In this document: positions 1 through 11,275 of the stretch, in pieces
Layout: every line of letters starts with the position of its first letter
Position numbering within the stretch: the stretch's first letter is position 1
NCBI GenBank assembly: GCA_963708785.1
Contig: CAVPTJ010000010.1
Span: 111,399-175,398, forward strand
Reading direction: 5' to 3'
DNA length: 64,000 bases
From: an uncultured Gammaproteobacteria bacterium
GTDB lineage: Bacteria; Pseudomonadota; Gammaproteobacteria; Xanthomonadales; Rhodanobacteraceae
Made by a program: the position numbers and the translations under genes
The notes under the pieces: generated by a model
Told to the model about the DNA's origin: nothing
The model's input: only the letters and a program-made list of their open reading frames with translations
The model's database searches: none

Positions 1-570
1 GGTGGTAACCGCGGGCTGGGTTGCCAATGGATGGCGGGGATCCCACGACCGCGCTTGACGTTGCCAGCCGTCAGTCGACCAACCGCCCACGACCAGGAGC
101 CGGCCGTCCGTCACAACGGTCGCCGTGTGGCCCGCGGTCGGCACGAGCGCAGCAATGGCAGCCGGCTCGACGGAATCGCTTGCGGTATCAAACCATAAAC
201 CGGTCGCCTGGATTTTGCCGGTTGAGTCAATACCACCCCACACGAGTACGCGCCCATCCGGCAGCAGTGACGCACTGGCGTACAGCCGTCCCTCGCGAGC
301 TATTTGCGTCATATGCGCTTGTGTCGAGACCAGCCACACGCCGTCAGCCGTAACCTTCAGGTGCCGCCCGTCAGGCAGAAGGGCATCGGCGTCGCTTGGC
401 ACAGCGCGGGCCGAAGCCAGATGCAGGAGGTCCGTTAGCGATGACGGAGTCGGCGATGCGCCGATCTCGTCGGCCGAGGCCGAGCAACATCCCACAGCCC
501 AAACACCCCAAACGATCCGTCGAGCCAGCGTCATTGATCCCATAACCATCCTTTCCAACATCACATTCAT
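1..570 (-). CDS. N-terminus of a secreted kelch-repeat (beta-propeller) protein, probably a large RHS/YD protein; runs off the window
   Basis: Manual translation of the minus strand gives an open frame from ATG 570 (or ATG 543 after GGAAAGGA) to base 1. It has a signal-like segment RRIVWGVWAVGCCSASA and kelch-type blades ASASLLPDGRVLVWGG and GHTATVVTDGRLLVVGG. It starts 11 bp after the stop of the 582-3623 gene. Not in the ORF track. RHS identity is inference. Confidence 0.75.
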   Translation of the reverse strand, partial: MNVMLERMVMGSMTLARRIVWGVWAVGCCSASADEIGASPTPSSLTDLLHLASARAVPSDADALLPDGRHLKVTADGVWLVSTQAHMTQIAREGRLYASASLLPDGRVLVWGGIDSTGKIQATGLWFDTASDSVEPAAIAALVPTAGHTATVVTDGRLLVVGGWSTDGWQRQARSWDPRHPLATQPAVTT

Positions 571-581
571 GGAGGAAACGC

Positions 582-3500
582 TCAAGGAGAAGTCACTTGC
601 CCGGTCACTGATTCCGTCGAACTGCTCGGATTGACCGAATAGACAATGGAGTACACACCAGTGACAGGTAGATTTGCGAGCGACTGCGTGCACGAGGCCA
701 AACTGCACGTTCCTTGCACCCAGAGGTATCCCGGCTCATAAATGCTGTACGTGATGGAACCGCCCGCTGGACTCGTCGCGACATTGGTCATCTTCAAGGT
801 CATATTCTGTCCGGCGGTACCCGAGAACGATTGATAGGCGGCTTCGCCGCCTGGATAGTGCGTTGTTACCGTTGCCGCGGAACCGTTCACCGTCAGTGGC
901 GTGTACGGATTGGTAGTCAGCGTGAGCTGAGAAGTCGAGGTGTCGGCGTAGTCGGCATCGATCTCCACCGTGTACGTACCCGTCGTCGTCAGCTGCGGCA
1001 GGTTGAGGAACGTGGTCGACGCCGTGTAGGTCGTCATCGTGTAGTTGGTCGTTCCATCCGGGTTGTAGTCGGTGATGGTCACGTTGCCGCCGGCGGGCGT
1101 CGTGGCGACGTTTGCGAGCGATAAGCCAATGCTGTTACCTGATGTGCCGCTGTAGCTAAGTCTCGCTATTTGACCGGGTTTGGTCAGATTGGACGAAAAC
1201 GGGCTATCCATGGCTAGCGTTCCGGTCACATCGCTCGACAGGGTGGCTGTAAACGTAATCGTTTCCGCTGTGCTCCCGTACGGCCCGAAGACCATGGTGT
1301 AAGTTCCTGTCCACGGCAGACTCGTCAGCGGATAGTGCGTTCCTATCGTGTTGAAGTTGAGCGGACCCGCGTAGAGCGACCCATTTTCATATACCCAGAG
1401 CGACAGCGTGCCTGCCGACGGAGACGTCGATATGTTGCTCAGTCCCAAACTAAGATTTTGTCCAGCAGTTCCAGAAAACGTCATGTAGGTTTCTTCGCCG
1501 GCGTAGGTCGTGCTTTGACTGACCGATGAACCATCGACGGTGATCGAGTTGGTCGGCAACGGCACGAGGGTGACTGTGGCCGATGCCGTGTCCGCATAGT
1601 CAGGGTCGAGCTGCACCGTGTACGTGCCGGTCTGAGACAACTCGGACAAATTGAGGAACGTGCTTGACGTTGTGTGAGTGGTTTCGGTGTAGTTCGTCGT
1701 ACCGTCCGGGTTGTACACGGTAAGAGTGACGTTCCCGCCAGAGGGCGTTGTCGATACACCACTCAAATTCAAACCGAAATTCTGTCCGGTCGTGCCCGTG
1801 AAGGTAAGTCGCGCGATCTGTCCGGGCTTGGCAAGATTGACGGTTTTCGGTGAATTGGCCGTCAGTGTTCCCGTCACGTCGGTAGACAGCGTGGCTGTAA
1901 ATGCAATTGTTTCGGCACTACCTCCATACGGACCGAAGGCCATGGTGTACGTTCCGGTGAGCGGCAGATTGAACAACGGATAGTGCACGCCGGTCCCGCC
2001 GAAGTTGAGCGCTTCTGTGTAAGCCACTCCACTGGGCTCGTATATCGTCACCGTCTCGGCACCCCCAGATGGATTGGTCGTGACATTGCTCAGCCCCAAG
2101 CTGACATTCTGTCCGGCTGTTCCTGAGAACGTCATGTACGTGCTTTCACCAACCACCGTTGAACTCTGGCTTACCGATGAGCCATTGATGCTGATAGCGG
2201 TCACCGGGTTCGCGGCCAGCGCGATTTGCGTGGACAGTGCGGTGCCGGGGCTGGATCCGATGATGACGTTGCTCGTCCCGGTCTCGGTCAGGGGTGAGAG
2301 GTTGTAAAACTGCGGAAACGCGTAGCTCGGGTAGGGAATCATCGCTTCCCCGATCGGCCCGAGAAACTGGATCGCCGAGACGGTTCCACCTGAAGGGGTG
2401 GTTGATGGGGATGTGGCCGCAAAGTAGAGGTATTGCTTAGCCAAGCCAGTGAACAGGACGCGTTTCGTTTGATTTGCCGCGGCCGTCGAAACGGTCGTTG
2501 GCGAAGCCGTCGTAAGAACGACGTTTGTTTCCACATTGACGGCAAATTGCGCGGTACTACTCGGCGCATTCATCACGACGGTGTAGGTCCCGGACTGCGG
2601 TAGCGGGGGTAAGTGCAGGGTCAGCGGGTACGCAGTTGAACCGACGTCGCCGCTCGCGATCGCTACGCCTGCCGGATCGTAAACCGTCACGCCCACATAG
2701 TTGCCGCTCGGCGTCGTCGTGAATGAAGCAAATTGCAGGCTCAACCATTGATCGGTGGCACCCTGGAAAACCGCTGCGGCATATTTACCTGCGGTGCTGA
2801 TATTGAGCGTCTGAGCCGATCCGTTGACGGTGAGCGTGGTCGTGGCGACAACATTGCCGGCGCCCACCGAAGCCGGTACAACGATGAGCGGTGTGGCGCT
2901 TTGCGCTGAGCCATAGGGTGTCGCTACGGTGACCGGACCCGACCCCGATTGTGCCGGGACGGGGAAAGCGAGCTGCGTGTCGCTCGTCGGGGTCACCGTT
3001 GAAGTAAACACGTCCACACCGGCCTGTGTCGCACCGGCGGTGGTGACAAAGTGGGTACCCGTGACGGTAACGGACGAACCGGAATTGGCCAGGGTCGGCG
3101 TGAACGAAGTGACCGTGGGCGGCAAGCCGCCGTCATCGGTAGTCACTGTGAACGTGTCCGCACTGGTCACTGTCGATGTTCCGACCGTGACCGAGATCGG
3201 ACCCGTCGTTGCGCTCGACGGCACAGTCACGACCAATTGCGTCGTCGTCGCCGACGTCACTGTTGCTGCGATGCTCCCGTTGAACTTTACCGTGTTACTG
3301 GCAGGCGTCGCGCTGAATCCCTGCCCGTTGATCGTTACCCCTGTCAATCCGAGCGGACCTCGACTAGGCGTGAACGCAAATATCGCGAGTTGGCCAGCAG
3401 GAACGGATTGGACACTCAGTATGTTTCCGAGCTTGTCGTAGACGAATTGACTTGACGCGCCCGTAGTGCTGGTGACCGCGCGCACGCGACCGTTGCTGTC

Positions 3501-3623
3501 GTAAACATAAGTGGCTGCTTGGGCAACAACTGCGACGAGTACCAAGCTCAGGAGAAAAAGCCCGAGGATTCGGCGCGGCCACGGCGTTTTCTGAGAAACG
3601 CGCGCGCGGTGATTGAGTCCCAT
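582..3623 (-). CDS. Secreted protein: N-terminal YD repeats, two IPT/TIG domains, then repeated beta-sandwich domains
   Basis: Signal peptide ending AQA; TYVYDSNGRV...FVYDKLGNI (YD); FTPSRGP...VTINGQGF...LVVTVP...TGPISV (IPT/TIG, twice); about seven repeats with F.GTAGQ...LP.TGTY; Ser/Thr rich. Confidence 0.88.
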   Translation of the reverse strand: MGLNHRARVSQKTPWPRRILGLFLLSLVLVAVVAQAATYVYDSNGRVRAVTSTTGASSQFVYDKLGNILSVQSVPAGQLAIFAFTPSRGPLGLTGVTINGQGFSATPASNTVKFNGSIAATVTSATTTQLVVTVPSSATTGPISVTVGTSTVTSADTFTVTTDDGGLPPTVTSFTPTLANSGSSVTVTGTHFVTTAGATQAGVDVFTSTVTPTSDTQLAFPVPAQSGSGPVTVATPYGSAQSATPLIVVPASVGAGNVVATTTLTVNGSAQTLNISTAGKYAAAVFQGATDQWLSLQFASFTTTPSGNYVGVTVYDPAGVAIASGDVGSTAYPLTLHLPPLPQSGTYTVVMNAPSSTAQFAVNVETNVVLTTASPTTVSTAAANQTKRVLFTGLAKQYLYFAATSPSTTPSGGTVSAIQFLGPIGEAMIPYPSYAFPQFYNLSPLTETGTSNVIIGSSPGTALSTQIALAANPVTAISINGSSVSQSSTVVGESTYMTFSGTAGQNVSLGLSNVTTNPSGGAETVTIYEPSGVAYTEALNFGGTGVHYPLFNLPLTGTYTMAFGPYGGSAETIAFTATLSTDVTGTLTANSPKTVNLAKPGQIARLTFTGTTGQNFGLNLSGVSTTPSGGNVTLTVYNPDGTTNYTETTHTTSSTFLNLSELSQTGTYTVQLDPDYADTASATVTLVPLPTNSITVDGSSVSQSTTYAGEETYMTFSGTAGQNLSLGLSNISTSPSAGTLSLWVYENGSLYAGPLNFNTIGTHYPLTSLPWTGTYTMVFGPYGSTAETITFTATLSSDVTGTLAMDSPFSSNLTKPGQIARLSYSGTSGNSIGLSLANVATTPAGGNVTITDYNPDGTTNYTMTTYTASTTFLNLPQLTTTGTYTVEIDADYADTSTSQLTLTTNPYTPLTVNGSAATVTTHYPGGEAAYQSFSGTAGQNMTLKMTNVATSPAGGSITYSIYEPGYLWVQGTCSLASCTQSLANLPVTGVYSIVYSVNPSSSTESVTGQVTSP

Positions 3624-3881
3624 GGTTTGCTCCCCGGGCCGGTATCAGCCGGCATGCACGATTGATTGCCGATTACAAAAATGAATAGGCCGCAGCCACA
3701 GAGTGCCTCCGCCCGATTACAGTGTTGGGACACATGGGCAAAACGGCGCGGAAAAAGCGATCACGATTGTCAGCTCCCCTAAATCCCGACGCCGACAAGA
3801 CAGTCGGAACTTGTTCGGGATGAAGTTCAGCACACCCTACTTACCCGATGCAAGCTGACATGACTGTAGCGGCGCTAAGGA

Positions 3882-4286
3882 CTAACGCGACCGGGAAGTG
3901 ATGCCTACAAGCAGATTGCACAAGGCTTCGCGGGCCTTGAGCGGCAACCGGCGATAGCGGTCCAGCAAGAGCTCTTCATTGGCGTCGTGGGCGAACGTGC
4001 TCAGCACAACCGCCGGAGGGTCATCCGCAGGCGCCGGCGATCGGCGCGCGTTTCCGCCGATCCCCGTGGCGAGCCAATCAAAGGCCACACCCGTCGCCGC
4101 TGCAACTGCCTGCAATCGCTCCACGCCTGGGCGCGTGCCGAGGCGACTCTCCCATTGCGCGACGGCGCTCGGCGTGACGCCCACCGTTTTTGCCAGTACC
4201 GCCTGCGTGAGTTTTGCGGCCGCGCGTGCGAGACGAATCCTCTCACTCATCAATGGCACCGACTTAGCCTTACTTATTTTTTTCAT
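3882..4286 (-). CDS. XRE-family HTH transcriptional regulator
   Basis: RIRLARAAAKLTQAVLAKTVGVTPSAVAQWE...AAATGVAFDWLATG, typical Cro/C1 HTH. Confidence 0.9.
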   Translation of the reverse strand: MKKISKAKSVPLMSERIRLARAAAKLTQAVLAKTVGVTPSAVAQWESRLGTRPGVERLQAVAAATGVAFDWLATGIGGNARRSPAPADDPPAVVLSTFAHDANEELLLDRYRRLPLKAREALCNLLVGITSRSR

Positions 4287-4472
4287 TCAGCAGCACTAAA
4301 CATTAGCCATAGTGGAGGTGTCACGAATACTAGATGCCGGTCCTTGCGTCAACCTGCATCGCTTTGCGTGGCGTTGGTGTCATGCCTGCTTTCAAGTAAA
4401 GTTGCGCGATCGGCGGACCGAACTGCCCGTCAAGAACGAACGTTCTGGACCACGCCCATTGCTTTGACCGCT

Positions 4473-5513
4473 ATGAGGAATAAACGTCACTCGTCTTGGA
4501 TAGCGCCGGCGTTTGCTGGATGGTTGGTATTGGCTCTTTTGCGAAGCGCTTTCGCGAGTGGTCCCAATCCTTTGATCAGCTTGGGACAGCACCTGTTCCA
4601 AGACAAAACACTTAGCAGCGATGGCACCGTCAGCTGCCAGACCTGTCACGATCCTACGCATGCTTTCGCTGATTCGCGTGCACGCGCCATCGGCGCCAAC
4701 GGCAGGGTTGGAACACGCAACGCGCCGAGCCTGATCGGTATCGGCAACGATAGTGCCTTTTTCTGGGATGGACGCCGCGACCGGCTTGAAGATGCGGTGA
4801 TGGATCCGTTCACCAATTCTGTGGAGTTGGGGCTTTCCTCCGTCAACGTCGCGCTTCGACGCTTGGAGCACGATCCTGACATGATGACGAAGTTTCGTGC
4901 AGCCTATCCGACGGCGCCGACAGTTCCAACCGTCGAACAAGTACAAGCAGCGTTAGCATCGTTTGTTCGTTCTCTCTCATCCGAAATGAGTCCTTACGAT
5001 CAAGCTCAGTCGACACATCGCGCTATGTCGGCGCAAGCCGAACAGGGACACCAACTGTTTGACGGTGTCGCCGGTTGTGCAGAGTGCCATAGCGAAGACG
5101 GGCGCGATGGGTTCTCTGACGGACGCTATCATCACTCCGGGATCGAACAAATCGCGATCACCGCACGCTTGCCTGGCATCACACAAGCGATTGTCGACAA
5201 CAAATTCGAACCCACTACGATTGGGCCGAAGGTGCTCGCCGATGCTGATTGGTCGGCCATGGGACGCTTCGTCGTCACGCGAAAGCCAGAGGACATCGGG
5301 GCCTTTAGAACGCCGTCGTTACGTAACGTGGCCTTGACCGCGCCTTACATGCATGACGGCAGCATTACCACGCTCGCTGATGCCGTCGATCATGAGATTT
5401 ACTACCGTGGCGCCAGCCGCGGGCATCCCATCGCCCTTGCGCTTTCGGAGCGGCAGGCGCTTGTGGCATTTCTGAAATCGCTGTCGGATGCGCAATACAC
5501 GAAACAAAAATAG
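4473..5513 (+). CDS. Di-heme cytochrome c peroxidase / MauG-family protein
   Basis: Signal peptide after ATG 4473; LF.DK.LS.DGTVSCQTCH, RNAPSL, FFWDGR, CAECH, GAFRTPSLRNVALTAPYMHDGS. Confidence 0.92.
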   Translation: MRNKRHSSWIAPAFAGWLVLALLRSAFASGPNPLISLGQHLFQDKTLSSDGTVSCQTCHDPTHAFADSRARAIGANGRVGTRNAPSLIGIGNDSAFFWDGRRDRLEDAVMDPFTNSVELGLSSVNVALRRLEHDPDMMTKFRAAYPTAPTVPTVEQVQAALASFVRSLSSEMSPYDQAQSTHRAMSAQAEQGHQLFDGVAGCAECHSEDGRDGFSDGRYHHSGIEQIAITARLPGITQAIVDNKFEPTTIGPKVLADADWSAMGRFVVTRKPEDIGAFRTPSLRNVALTAPYMHDGSITTLADAVDHEIYYRGASRGHPIALALSERQALVAFLKSLSDAQYTKQK

Positions 5514-6481: not shown

Positions 6482-7608
6482 ATGACAAGCACTTTGAGCG
6501 GCTTTTCCGCGCTCCTGAAGCATTTTAGGAAATTAGCGATCGTTGCGGCCGCGACCGTGATGCTCGTCGTCGCAGTCGTTGCGCGCGCGCAGAGTTCATC
6601 GTCGGACGAGCTGACCATACAGCTCACGCCCTCCGATCAACGTGCAGCGCTTGCTGCAAAAGTGGGCGCGCATCACGCGCTTCCTGCGAACAATGCGGCT
6701 GGTCAAGCGTTGCGTGCTCTACAAAGCGCAGAGCGAAGACCCATCAACAATGCCTCGGATGACAGGCGCCCGGGTGGGAAGATTCTTCAATACCCGGGCG
6801 ATTTAACCTTCTTTGGTGGGCACGTGGTGACGTCCGCAGTCTCACACGCGATATACCTGCAAAGGCAGCCGGGCGGCGACTGCGCAATCGCCACGTGCTG
6901 GGGTGATCCGGAAGGATTTCTGCGTGATCTCGGCCATAGTGAATTCATCCATGTCATCGATCAGTACGTCGGGATACGTGATGCGAACCGGTATACCGTT
7001 GGATTTCACGCCACCGTGAATTACCAATCTCAGGCGACACCGCTGCTTGACTCGGACATCGCGGCGTTTGTGCATGCGGTCGCGGCCCAAACCGGCGCCA
7101 CGGGTTACGGTCACATCTACCACGTATTCTTGCCGCCGGGACAGGATGAATGTTCCGACCCTCCCTTTTCGACGGAGTGCTATTCACCCGACAATCCGGC
7201 GACATTTGAATTCTGCGCGTTTCACATCAGCGCGGATTTCCCCGACATCGGCCACGTCCTATATACCGTCCATCCGTATGCGAACGTGCCGGGATGCCAG
7301 GTTCAACCCGGCACCCTTAATGGCGAACTCGTCGATTCGACCGACAGTACCCTAAATCACGAGACGTTCGAAACCATCACTGACCCAGATCCACAGGATG
7401 GCGATAGTGCCGGATGGAAAGAGTTCGGCTCTTCTTATTTAACTTTGCAGAAATCGCCGACGAATGCCAGTTGCGTGTGGTCGTTGCCGACCAGGGCTAT
7501 AACGAAGTACCGACATTTTTGATCGGCGCGCACCGATACGCGGTGCCATTGATGTATTCAAACGAACAGCACGCCTGCAGTTCAGCACCAACGAGGGGAA
7601 CGCCATGA
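6482..7608 (+). pseudogene. Secreted Phi-1/EXORDIUM-like protein, paralog 1; one frameshift near 7435 (error or decay)
   Basis: Signal peptide, FCAFH and HETFETITDP in the 6482 frame; AEIADEC...YSNEQHACSSAP continues in the 7414-7608 frame. Confidence 0.7.
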
Positions 7609-8671
7609 AAACGTCCCGTTCTTTTTTTGCACGCTCGCTATCGCCGCTGCAGTGACTATGTTCTTTGCACTCCCTGCGTGGGCACAGAGTTCGCTCTCTG
7701 GCGAGGTGACGATTCAAATGACGGCCGCCGATCACGAGCTGCCGCAATGGCCGCCCAGTTGCGCTACCGCCACGCGCGTCCCGCGAATAATGCGGCCGGC
7801 CAAGTGTTACGCGCTCTGCAGACCGCAGAGCACACATCGTCATTCAGCAGCACGAGCGACTGGGGCAAAGGCGGCGCGCTTCTTCAATACTTTGGCGATG
7901 TGACGTATGGGGGCGGAAGCGTCGTGAAGTCCGCGGTCTCCCATGCGATATACCTGCAGCCCCAGACCGGCAACCAATGCACGATCGCCGCCTGCTGGGG
8001 TGACCCGGAAGGATTTCTGCTCGACCTGGGGCACAGTGATTTCATCCACGATGTCGATCAATATGTCGGTCTGTACGGTGGAGACCGCTATACGGTTGGA
8101 TTCCATGCGATGGTGAACTATTCCCCGCCGGCGACGCCGCTGCTGGACACGGACATCCAGGCATTCGTGCATGCGGTAGCGGTAAAGAGCGGCGCTTCGG
8201 GACATGGCGACATTTACCACGTGTTCCTGCCACCGGGGCAGGACGAGTGCTTCGATTCGACTTTCGCGACCTGCTATTCACCCGACAATCCTGCGGCATT
8301 TTACTACTGCGGGTATCATTCCAGCGCGGATTTCCCCGAACATCGGCCACGTACTGTACACCTTGCAGCCGTATCAGGACGTAGCTGGTTGTCAGGATCA
8401 GCCCGGCACTCCCAACGGCACGCTGGTGGACTCGGTTGACGAAGACCTTGATCACGAAACGATCGAAACCATAACCGACCCGGACGGAGACGCGTGGACA
8501 AACACCAACTCCGCTGTCTTACGCGGCTCCGAAATCGCCGATGAATGCGATTTTTTTGACATTCAGAATTTTGAATATTTTGAAGTTCTGACGTTTCTGA
8601 TCGGAGCGCATCTGTACGCGGTGCAAACGGTTTATTCAAACGAACAACACGCCTGCAGTTCAGCGCCATAG
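7605..8671 (+). pseudogene. Secreted Phi-1/EXORDIUM-like protein, paralog 2; about three frameshifts
   Basis: ATGA overlap with paralog 1. Segments in the 7652, 7627 and 8204 frames align to paralog 1 (CWGDPEGFL.DLGHS, YHVFLPPGQDEC, HETIETITDP, EIADEC, YSNEQHACSSAP). Confidence 0.7.
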
Positions 8672-8695
8672 GAAAATGCCGAAATCGTGGCGCAG

Positions 8696-11275
8696 TTATG
8701 CTCCACCACCGGCTTGTCGGCGTGCCATCGCGATTGCTTCAGCGCGCGATGGCACGCCGAGCTTCATCAAGATCGCCGAAACGTGATGGTCGATCGTTTT
8801 CGTCGATACAAACAGGCGCTTGGCGATCGCGGAATTGCGCAGACCTTCTCGAGCAGATCAAGCACTTCCACTTCGCGTTGGGTGAGGCCATGTGGATTGC
8901 GCAACGTTGAGGTACTGAGCCACGAGGAATGCTGCGAACGCCCTTTGCCCGCATCTGTCCGCAGAGCCAATGCTGCTGGCGCGGCGCCGAGCTGCTCGAA
9001 GATCACGAGAGCTTCTCGCTGCTCGACTTCTGTCGTACCACGCAAGCATGCTTGCGTGCTCATAAGGGCAATCCAGCGCTTGCCAGGAGCTTGCCGCACC
9101 ACGCCAGTCGCCAGAAATCTCGCACGCGTAGGTTTCCGGAATATGGTTGGATGTTTTTTTAGAGCTTCGACGCGCCAAAGCCAGGCTGCAAGATCGCCTT
9201 TCATCCGCGGATCTCGTCGCTGGCATACCAATTCGTAGGCTGGCTGCACTGCACTGACGACACCGTTACGATCGCCTGCCAGCCACGCGGCTTCAGCCTC
9301 GATTGCGGCAAGCGTACCGATACGCTGCAGCGACGGCGCAGGTCCAGCGAGCGCCCCTGCTTTTTCGAGCGGCGAGCGCGCATCAGGGTCGCCGCGCCGA
9401 ATGCGTACGAGTCCGAGAATCCTTAGCGCCGGAATGAGGCTGTGTGGTGTGGCGTGTGGATGTCGCACACGGCTTCTGCATCTTCGCTGGCACCGTTCCA
9501 GTCTCCTTGCTCGAATTTCAGGCGAGCCCTAAATGCGAGCATGTAGAGCCACCATGCATCCAGATCGCGCGCTTCGCAGTACACGAGCCCTTCACGAAGG
9601 TGACGCGATGCCCGCTCGTATTCACGACGAGAAATGGCCATAGCGACCAAGCTTGAATAGGCCGCCCCCACTCGATCCGGAAGGTCGGCGGTCATCGCAA
9701 GTTCCAGACTTCGGTCAAGATCGGCCCAACCGTCGGTGTTGCCACTGATGAGTCGCACCGTGCCCAAAGTACACAGCGCATGACTCAGAATTTCAGAATC
9801 TCCCCACGGTTGCGCAAGCGTAATGGCACGCTGTCCCCATTCAACCGCGGCGTGCTCGTCGTGAGATTTCAAATACACGTAGAAGTCCGCTATTTCGCAA
9901 TATGCCATGGCCAGCTCCGGGCTCGCCTCCAGCGACTCGAGTGCGGCGACAGCATCGATTCCGTACTGGCCGGCCGCCACCGTGTCACCGGTAAACGAGC
10001 TCAGTCGCGACAACCACCGCAACGCGTTGTCTTCCTTCCGACGCTGTCCCAAAGCTCGCCAAGTCTCTATCGCCGAGCGCTGGGTTAATGGCGCTTCGTG
10101 CTGGCCGGTCAGATGACACTCGTACGACAGTTGTTCCTGAAGGTTTGCACGCTCCTCAGGCGTGAGACGCGCCGCATACTCAAGCGTTATTTGATAGTGC
10201 GATGTCGCTTCACGATGGGCACCTACCGATGCGGCCTGAGCGGCGGCAATTGGTGCGAAGCGCAAGACTTGCTCTGCATCGCGCGCGCCCCCGGCGTGAT
10301 GTGCGAGACGGGCGACCGGAATGCCAGGCCGCGCCGTAAGACCGCGAGCACCTTCGAGTGCAGATTCTGTAACCGCGGCGGACTTAGCGAGTCGAGGAGC
10401 GCGCGCCGGACAAGCTCGTGGCGAAAGGCTAGAGCGCCCTCCTTGTCACGTACCATGCCCATACTCAGGCAGTCCTCGATTCCCGCTTCATCCGGTTGAA
10501 CCGCTTGCTCAAGCAGCCACGGCTCGGCTTGACCGGGAACAACGCAGACGAGTTCGGCGATTTCGCGTGCCGCCGGAGAAAGCCGGACCGTACGCGCGAG
10601 CACGGCATCGCGAACAGTGACGGGAATGGCGCCTCCATCTGTTGCCAGTACCTCGCTTATGAAGAGAGGGTTGCCACCGGTGGCGTGGTGCAGGCCCTTA
10701 GGAGAGCGGCCGGCTGACTTGGCAAGTTGCGCGACGGCGGATTCAGACAGCGGTCGGAGCGTCATTCGGCGCGTACTCGCGCGCGGCAAGTCGCCGATGA
10801 CGAAGCGCAGTGGATGGCGCGGACCAACCTCGTCATCACGATACGTCACTGCAATCATGACGCGCATGCGATGAATGCGCCTCCCCAAATATTTGATCAG
10901 ATCGAGTGTCGCTTCATCGGCCCAATGCATGTCCTCGAATACGACTAGCGTGCTTTCTCCATGCTCGAGTTCGTCGAGCATGTCGGAGAACATTGCGTTC
11001 CGGTTCGCTCCTGAATTGACAGCTGCGAATAGCGCGCCTTTTGTCTGTCGCGCGATATCGTGCAGCGGAGCGAGCGGCAAAGGAGTAAACAGCGCGTCAC
11101 ATGCCCCCCAGAGAACCGTTGCCCCTTGCTGCCGAATAGAGAACTCCTGCAGCAGAGCGGTCTTCCCAATACCCGCTTCGCCGCCGACAAGTGCGATACA
11201 GCCGCTGCCCTCGGCTGCAGCATGCAGCCATGCCATCAAGTCCGCGAGACATCGTTCGCGCTCGAGCAGTTCCAT
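8696..11275 (-). pseudogene. Large AAA-ATPase (STAND)-TPR-LuxR regulator, multiply frameshifted
   Basis: Walker A GEAGIGKT, Walker B VVFEDMHWAD, GGNPLF, FRHELVR, a TPR-like middle, and a C-terminal HTH NPHGLTQREVEVL...GLRNSAIAKRLFVSTKTIDHHVSAILMKLGV, pieced together across frames; stop TAA 8696-8698. Confidence 0.85.

Follow-up and report, generated by a model that had tools for sequence, protein, structure and literature searches.

Among enzymes of the CCP_MauG superfamily, precedents for protein modification are MauG, which makes tryptophan tryptophylquinone, and MbnH, which makes kynurenine, in each case in a partner protein (PMC11951088). Here we analyze a 64,000-nucleotide stretch of DNA, referred to as the window, from an uncultured member of the Rhodanobacteraceae (assembly GCA_963708785.1, contig CAVPTJ010000010.1; C10:111399-175398), the genome of which (G000) is 60% complete. 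At its left end a gene for a di-heme enzyme of this superfamily stands near a gene for a YD-IPT protein and the beginning of a gene for a large Rhs protein. The original prediction, made from the window alone, was that the enzyme may modify or cross-link its neighbors to give an exported Rhs-type assembly. This idea has withstood the computational tests applied to it and gains strength from the finding that in actinobacteria dye-decolorizing peroxidases (DyPs) take the place of the di-heme enzyme. The module is real, conserved and apparently undescribed. Taking all of the analyses together, we give about an even chance to the reading that it comprises an exported Rhs toxin, a YD-IPT partner and a dedicated heme peroxidase that would oxidize or cross-link Trp or Tyr residues of the toxin assembly as a maturation step. 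Our literature search, which had supplements and most subscription journals outside its scope and could have missed a mention in a neighborhood table, returned no description of Rhs genes with a peroxidase partner. To our knowledge, enzymatic maturation by oxidation is not known for any polymorphic toxin, whether of the Rhs type or another.

The window enzyme is a member of the CCP_MauG superfamily, as it has two CxxCH motifs and matches Pfam PF03150 with 162 bits (cut-off 25.6, E 1.6e-47). Its AlphaFold model (predicted local distance difference test, pLDDT, 88) has as fold matches YhjA (Z 29.3), BccP (28.3), MauG (28.1), BthA (26.6) and MbnH (24.8), and the sequence match to BthA is weak (51 bits). 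With MauG/preMADH (PDB 3L4M) and MbnH/MbnP (PDB 6E1C) it has in common the CCP_MauG fold, both CxxCH motifs, the bridging Trp and the distal Pro and Glu, and all three enzymes lack a Met ligand, are exported (predicted for the window enzyme) and have a fixed gene partner. Unlike MauG and MbnH, it falls in a separate clade and below the NCBIfam cut-offs, has Glu, in an ungapped register, at the position of the Tyr ligand, has mostly lost Gln103 in its family, and is partnered by a likely Rhs toxin rather than by a quinoprotein or a copper protein. As a MauG ortholog it reaches 156 bits against the 444 of TIGR03791, there are no mau genes, and the MauG reference lies outside its clade; as an MbnH it reaches 208 against the 363 bits of TIGR04039, and its neighbors are IPT and Rhs genes rather than MbnP. 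Canonical bacterial cytochrome c peroxidases (CcPs) and YhjA share the fold (Z 28-29) and the N-terminal heme domain, but they differ in having a Met sixth ligand, in belonging to other parts of the tree and in never being adjacent to Rhs genes in the loci examined. The tree contained 139 di-heme enzymes together with reference rows for MauG, MbnH and MtoB, with fragments and duplicates excluded and without a BthA row, and 57 of the di-heme enzymes, including that of the window, formed one clade (FastTree support 0.93) apart from the canonical CcPs and from all three reference enzymes.

Conservation of individual residues was counted in the 120 best homologs of the enzyme, with MauG numbering taken from PDB titles. 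Two CxxCH motifs are present in 117 of the 120, the equivalent of Glu113 in 118 and that of Pro107 in 110, and the W98, Pro, Glu and Asn/Thr-Pro positions are invariant in a 34-row alignment. We take W98 to be the equivalent of MauG W93, and the Asn/Thr-Pro positions are presumably the Ca site. Near heme 2, in an ungapped register, Glu is found in 117/120 homologs at the position of the Met of canonical CcPs and the Tyr of MauG and MbnH, followed by x-Tyr-Tyr (113 and 117/120, respectively). MAFFT and HMMER place Tyr310 at the ligand position by means of a two-residue insertion. Since helix 301-316 is predicted to be continuous in the AlphaFold model, which together with the ungapped register favors Glu308, this residue is the likely sixth ligand of heme 2, with Tyr310 as the alternative.

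All 48 di-heme enzymes that adjoin Rhs or IPT genes lie inside the clade of 57, while none of the 82 outside it does so, although many of the latter are on short metagenome contigs. Nine clade members have no such neighbors; five of these have no flanking DNA and four look like orphans. In the family sample, IPT or Rhs neighbors are present at 35 of 37 clade loci outside the window genome, compared with 0 of 21 control loci carrying other CCP_MauG enzymes, and of 401 family genomes 34 have a clade enzyme and 32 a strong match to the Rhs N-terminal profile, with both in 31, the enzyme only in three (G064, which is complete, G308, and G240, in which an IPT gene is at a contig end) and a Rhs fragment only in one (G196, at a contig start). 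The Rhs matches are patchy across 11 of the 30 genera sampled, and kin are not independent. The di-heme enzyme is thus tied tightly, and far above chance, to Rhs and IPT genes. An absence of co-occurrence, or a grouping with canonical peroxidases, would have spoken against the original prediction, and neither was found. The window genome has the three genes twice in the same layout, the second cassette (C11:78852-87460) consisting of a di-heme paralog (P0060, 50% identical), a YD/IPT gene and an open Rhs frame of 1578 residues without Kelch repeats, and two Burkholderia plasmids carry the same three genes, again in the same layout. Among 400 genomes sampled across the Pseudomonadota there was no further full match and one weak match to CarboxypepD only, so that in this set the system is rare beyond the family; a single-protein GTDB scan gave only two loci. 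The Rhs family is also recorded in Xanthomonas campestris pv. campestris and Stenotrophomonas rhizophila (P0180, P0208).

Two further kinds of genes recur near the proteobacterial loci. On both Burkholderia plasmids a type II secretion-like operon (GspG, F, E and secretin) lies behind the peroxidase gene (L162:1-7106; L163:1-6732), and two metagenome loci (L017, L018) are flanked by similar genes; possibly, this operon provides a dedicated outer-membrane export route. A lipoprotein-like open reading frame (ORF) of about 170 residues, with no Pfam match, recurs in Dyella/Luteibacter-type loci and is absent from the window. It is located just upstream of the di-heme gene in L091-L098, L019 and L022, downstream in L009 and L010, and also at a Rhs copy without the enzyme (L147:1157-1735).

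The Rhs family itself has much in common with the Rhs proteins of type VI secretion systems, TcB-TcC shells and bacterial teneurin-like proteins, namely a YD shell, a DPxG core, variable tips and small downstream ORFs. It appears to differ at the N-terminus, where a signal-peptide-like stretch, Kelch, Big5 and CarboxypepD domains are found in place of PAAR/VgrG or FN-plug/NHL, and it also differs in having a YD-IPT partner, either separate or fused, as well as a peroxidase neighbor. Sequence similarity to PDB entries is limited to the C-terminal YD/core region, the N-terminal model gave only Ig/CopC-type matches with Foldseek, and the N-terminal profile gave only Ig-like matches in a PDB sequence search. 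In the main text of a paper on teneurin-like proteins, the words 'peroxidase', 'cytochrome', 'kelch' and 'carboxypeptidase' do not occur (PMC13018210). An intact homolog (L004) and the C11 copy have all of the features expected of a Rhs polymorphic toxin, with YD repeats, DUF6531 and a core bounded by DPxG; the window copy has them in pieces. No PAAR match was found in the intact homolog and no VipB match in the window genome, at its 60% completeness. The 16 C-terminal tips taken from intact homologs differ from each other, and of 15 scanned two contain plausible toxin folds (YkuD and CHAP, which are peptidoglycan-related), while the immunity families SUKH-3, SMI1/KNR4 and Imm11 are found downstream of actinobacterial homologs. 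Judged by sequence, the family likely represents interbacterial, antibacterial polymorphic toxins. Tandem or orphan Rhs modules, typical of tip exchange, follow the main gene in L118, L093, L101, L103, L148 and L155, and in both phyla a different repeat, beginning PVRLLDTR or PARLLDTR, replaces or extends the IPT-type partner or the Rhs N-terminus (L090:8796-10940; L209:4948-12975).

Actinobacteria carry the same Rhs family in a form that has the YD-IPT part joined to the Rhs protein in a single chain, and here the di-heme enzyme is replaced. A gene for a DyP or for a DyP-like DUF7405 protein lies within 20 kb of the Rhs gene at 28 of 37 loci in all: a DyP gene comes next, after Rhs, in all five Streptomyces plasmid homologs, a sample of 391 genomes of the phylum gave five loci, of which one had a DyP gene and one a DUF7405 gene (one Big5-only match was excluded), and 27 further loci gave 18 DyP and three DUF7405 genes (21/27). 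As a baseline, two 10-Mb genomes contain one and two DyP genes, which is well under 1% per 20 kb. The peroxidase gene is found upstream or downstream of Rhs and on either strand. Two unrelated peroxidase folds accompany one toxin family. The Streptomyces DyPs, which carry Tat-like motifs, form a subgroup in which five of the six plasmid matches above 60% identity are adjacent to Rhs genes; in a second set the proximal-His motif is kept in 17/17 matched DyPs, and canonical GFKDG DyPs occupy the slot in L169, L208 and L210. The Rhs-linked enzymes resemble EfeB-like class A DyPs in scoring above the Dyp_perox cut-off and in their Tat-like motif and proximal His, but differ from EfeB in falling below the equivalog cut-off (200-214 vs 428), in a distal Asp that is mostly Glu and in their Rhs neighbor. 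DUF7405 resembles DyP by language-model features (0.95 against a DyP cluster in the ESM Atlas), which is a lead and not an alignment, and a DUF7405 sequence search returned no match. DUF7405 proteins with Tat-like motifs fill the peroxidase slot in L172:9277-10770 and L204-L206. Nine actinobacterial loci have no peroxidase gene, three of them (L176, L203 and L207) being truncated.

We propose that the peroxidase acts on the toxin assembly after export. All three proteins would leave the cytoplasm, as suggested by their signal-peptide-like N-termini and by the Tat-like motifs of the DyPs, and the fusion of the two chains in actinobacteria suggests that the IPT protein would pair with the Rhs shell through its N-terminal YD repeat. 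Hydrogen peroxide would activate heme 1, from which a hole would pass via W98 to heme 2, with its probable Glu ligand, and then reach the partner by way of the conserved Tyr pair, a role that a surface Trp has in MauG. The main argument for oxidative maturation is that two unrelated folds, which have only heme peroxidase chemistry and export in common, pair with one toxin family. With somewhat less than even confidence, we suggest a new class of exported polymorphic toxins that would require oxidative maturation outside the cytoplasm. In these, a private peroxidase, recruited independently from MauG-like, DyP and DUF7405 proteins, would install a cofactor or a cross-link derived from Trp or Tyr and thereby lock or arm the Rhs shell, and in proteobacteria the enzyme would use a His/Glu-ligated c-type heme. 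If this is true, the toxin assembly would be a third kind of substrate for MauG-like enzymes and a concrete protein substrate for a subgroup of the bacterial DyP peroxidases, a group for which few natural roles are established, and it would provide a first functional lead for DUF7405 and a possible His/Glu c-heme.

The lead candidate for the residue modified would be in a motif, W/F-x-P-x(5-12)-G-x-W, that stands just before CarboxypepD in a linker that varies elsewhere. The second candidate would be a cross-link of Tyr residues within the YD region. In the window Rhs gene the linker Trp is at C10:110654, 744 nucleotides left of the window. The second Trp of the motif was present in 36/36 proteobacterial Rhs rows, in both Burkholderia proteins and, in a comparison from which 17 proteobacterial rows and one actinobacterial row without the anchor motif were dropped, in 24/25 peroxidase-linked actinobacterial rows. 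It is also found in 181 of the 194 anchored rows among 249 database proteins, a supporting figure only, as 55 proteins were unanchored and some anchors misplaced. Many Tyr positions are conserved equally, and a Tyr cross-link stays in play because the minimal protein of L208 consists only of the N-terminal YD repeat, IPT, CarboxypepD and the shell. Complex prediction with the di-heme enzyme and Rhs residues 140-442 (score 0.00, mark 0.32) counts neither way.

A number of observations weigh against this proposal. The linker Trp cannot be the sole obligatory target, because it is absent in L208, where a DyP is present, and because it is kept at four of the six peroxidase-less actinobacterial loci (two of six do not have it); since the linker segment is ordered in the AlphaFold model (pLDDT ~80-93), the Trp may be only structural. 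These six loci (L170, L174, L184, L187, L202 and L209) lack a peroxidase despite adequate flanks, and no other oxidase was found by Pfam among the ORFs submitted from five of them, and none for the flanks of L174. The linkage also has exceptions in proteobacteria, in that orphan clade enzymes have no Rhs or IPT gene in L011, L102 and L105 (at least 10 kb covered upstream) or in L025 (a 6-kb contig), the complete genome G064 has a clade enzyme without a Rhs match, and G161 and G021 have extra Rhs copies with no adjacent enzyme, though one is found elsewhere in both genomes. The catalytic sites deviate as well, with Ala or Val at the Gln103 position in 97/120 homologs, apparent replacement of the usual Tyr/Met ligand of heme 2 in the clade enzymes, and Glu for the distal Asp in 14/17 matched DyPs.

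Alternatively, the peroxidase might oxidize the surface of the target cell or on material released from killed cells, such as heme or iron, as a co-delivered weapon or scavenger. A heme or iron role has been proposed for EfeB-like DyPs, and the actinobacterial enzymes are EfeB-like with Tat-like motifs; that any peroxidase fold seems to suffice fits a job of low specificity, as does the presence of the enzyme without Rhs in G064 fit a role apart from the toxin. We nevertheless regard this as unlikely. The hemes of a c-type di-heme enzyme are covalently bound, so it is not a heme-stripping protein, the link is to one Rhs family (an unrelated Rhs protein without CarboxypepD near L108 and the 82 other di-heme enzymes are unlinked), and both types of peroxidase form dedicated subgroups, as exemplified by the plasmid DyPs above 60% identity.

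The enzyme might also be a plain peroxide scavenger that protects the producer, or its Tyr-rich toxin shell, during competition. The best fold matches, to YhjA, BccP and MauG, are nearly tied, and orphan copies of the enzyme exist. However, the enzyme has no Met ligand such as that of the electron-storing heme in canonical CcPs (117/120 homologs have Glu there), canonical CcPs of the same family never adjoin Rhs or IPT genes (0/21 control loci), and generic protection would not predict a tie to a single Rhs family, all of which makes mere scavenging quite improbable. The gene neighbor of BthA is a phosphatase. BthA weighs on the side of scavenging and against maturation, as it is a catalytic peroxidase that turns over hydrogen peroxide despite its MauG-like site and has no known protein substrate (PMC6405878). 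The substituted catalytic sites of the two kinds of peroxidase (Gln to Ala/Val and Tyr/Met to Glu in the di-heme enzymes, Asp to Glu in the DyPs) might instead indicate degenerate, non-catalytic heme proteins that assist the exported assembly as chaperones or belong to it as structural subunits. This is very doubtful, as one would hardly expect two unrelated folds to arrive at the same binding role and both retain their heme ligands, the Trp, Pro, Glu and Asn/Thr-Pro residues are invariant in the 34-row alignment, and canonical GFKDG DyPs (L169, L208 and L210) are also in the slot. Hitch-hiking on a mobile island, for which the IS3 and integrase genes around the window locus and the several copies on plasmids might argue, is extremely improbable, since the pairing holds at 40-65% protein identity from Xanthomonadales to Burkholderia, is seen again in another phylum with unrelated peroxidases whose genes lie on either side of Rhs and on either strand, and is not accompanied by recurring flanking genes.

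The features of the window locus are listed in Table 1. Close homologs of its genes are named Rudaea, Dokdonella, Dyella and Rhodanobacter.

Table 1. Genes and sequence motifs of the Rhs, YD-IPT and di-heme enzyme locus (window positions).
Feature	Position	Strand	Remarks
Kelch-Big5-linker-CarboxypepD-DUF6531-YD-Rhs gene, 5' end	1..570	-	Runs off left edge
YD-IPT protein, 1013 aa	582..3623	-	Signal-peptide-like N-terminus, one YD repeat, two IPT/TIG domains, then beta-sandwich repeats
XRE-family helix-turn-helix regulator (HTH_3)	3882..4286	-	Local passenger
Di-heme CCP_MauG-family enzyme, Rhs-linked ExYY clade, 346 aa	4473..5513	+	Signal-peptide-like N-terminus
Heme-1 CxxCH (C55-H59)	4635..4649	+	
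W98 to E118	4764..4826	+	Bridging Trp, distal Pro112 and Glu118 kept; MauG Gln103 position is Ala108
Heme-2 CxxCH (C202-H206)	5076..5090	+	
Clade motif E308-I-Y310-Y311	5394..5405	+	At predicted heme-2 sixth-ligand position

The four genes of the original prediction are indeed present by ORF and Pfam analyses, with Kelch repeats at the left edge followed by the YD/IPT, XRE and divergent di-heme genes, but its statement that all four frames are intact does not hold for the first, which is not a separate propeller protein. Rather, the Kelch repeats are a domain of the Rhs protein, and the breaks in its gene lie left of the window. Translation probably starts at ATG 570, 549 or 534, in a frame open from GTG 708, followed by a signal-peptide-like stretch and the Kelch repeats. 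The ORF reaches C10:109914 and encodes 730 residues with Kelch, Big_5 and CarboxypepD_reg, or the first 40% of a Rhs gene of about 1,800 codons that is broken 3' of this point and extends to about C10:106500. Here the expected Sec-type Rhs assembly was found, with DUF6531-like sequence, YD repeats, the DPxG core, a variable tip and a small downstream ORF spread over several frames. Aligned with an intact homolog by a frameshift-aware method, the stretch from ~C10:109910 to 107000 shows 14 frame changes and one stop, and the core motif carries non-consensus residues. The breaks represent either real decay or a local assembly problem, and decay is plausible on sequence grounds because 0/24 control genes (10,887 residues) are broken.

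A signal-peptide-like stretch, read from the sequence, begins the Kelch/Rhs, YD-IPT and di-heme ORFs, and the XRE ORF has none. The XRE regulator had been counted as part of the system, and is rejected as a core component as it is not conserved among the loci: BLAST found it only at the window locus, at one locus of a Rudaea metagenome-assembled genome (L004, the same as L088) and, in L121, 4.4 kb downstream of the enzyme. The Kelch domain was likewise considered as a substrate of the enzyme and rejected as unlikely, since neither the C11 copy nor any of the inspected actinobacterial proteins has it, which shows it to be dispensable.

The state of preservation of the region is uneven. There is no break over ~7 kb that covers the 5' part of the Rhs gene, the IPT, XRE and di-heme genes, while at window positions 6482-11275 two paralogous ORFs for proteins that look secreted and a gene for a LuxR/AAA regulator appear to be split by frame changes. 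The left end of the island, which is low in guanine plus cytosine, has a tyrosine integrase gene beside rnr and an IS3 element (G000:C10:101226-106223).

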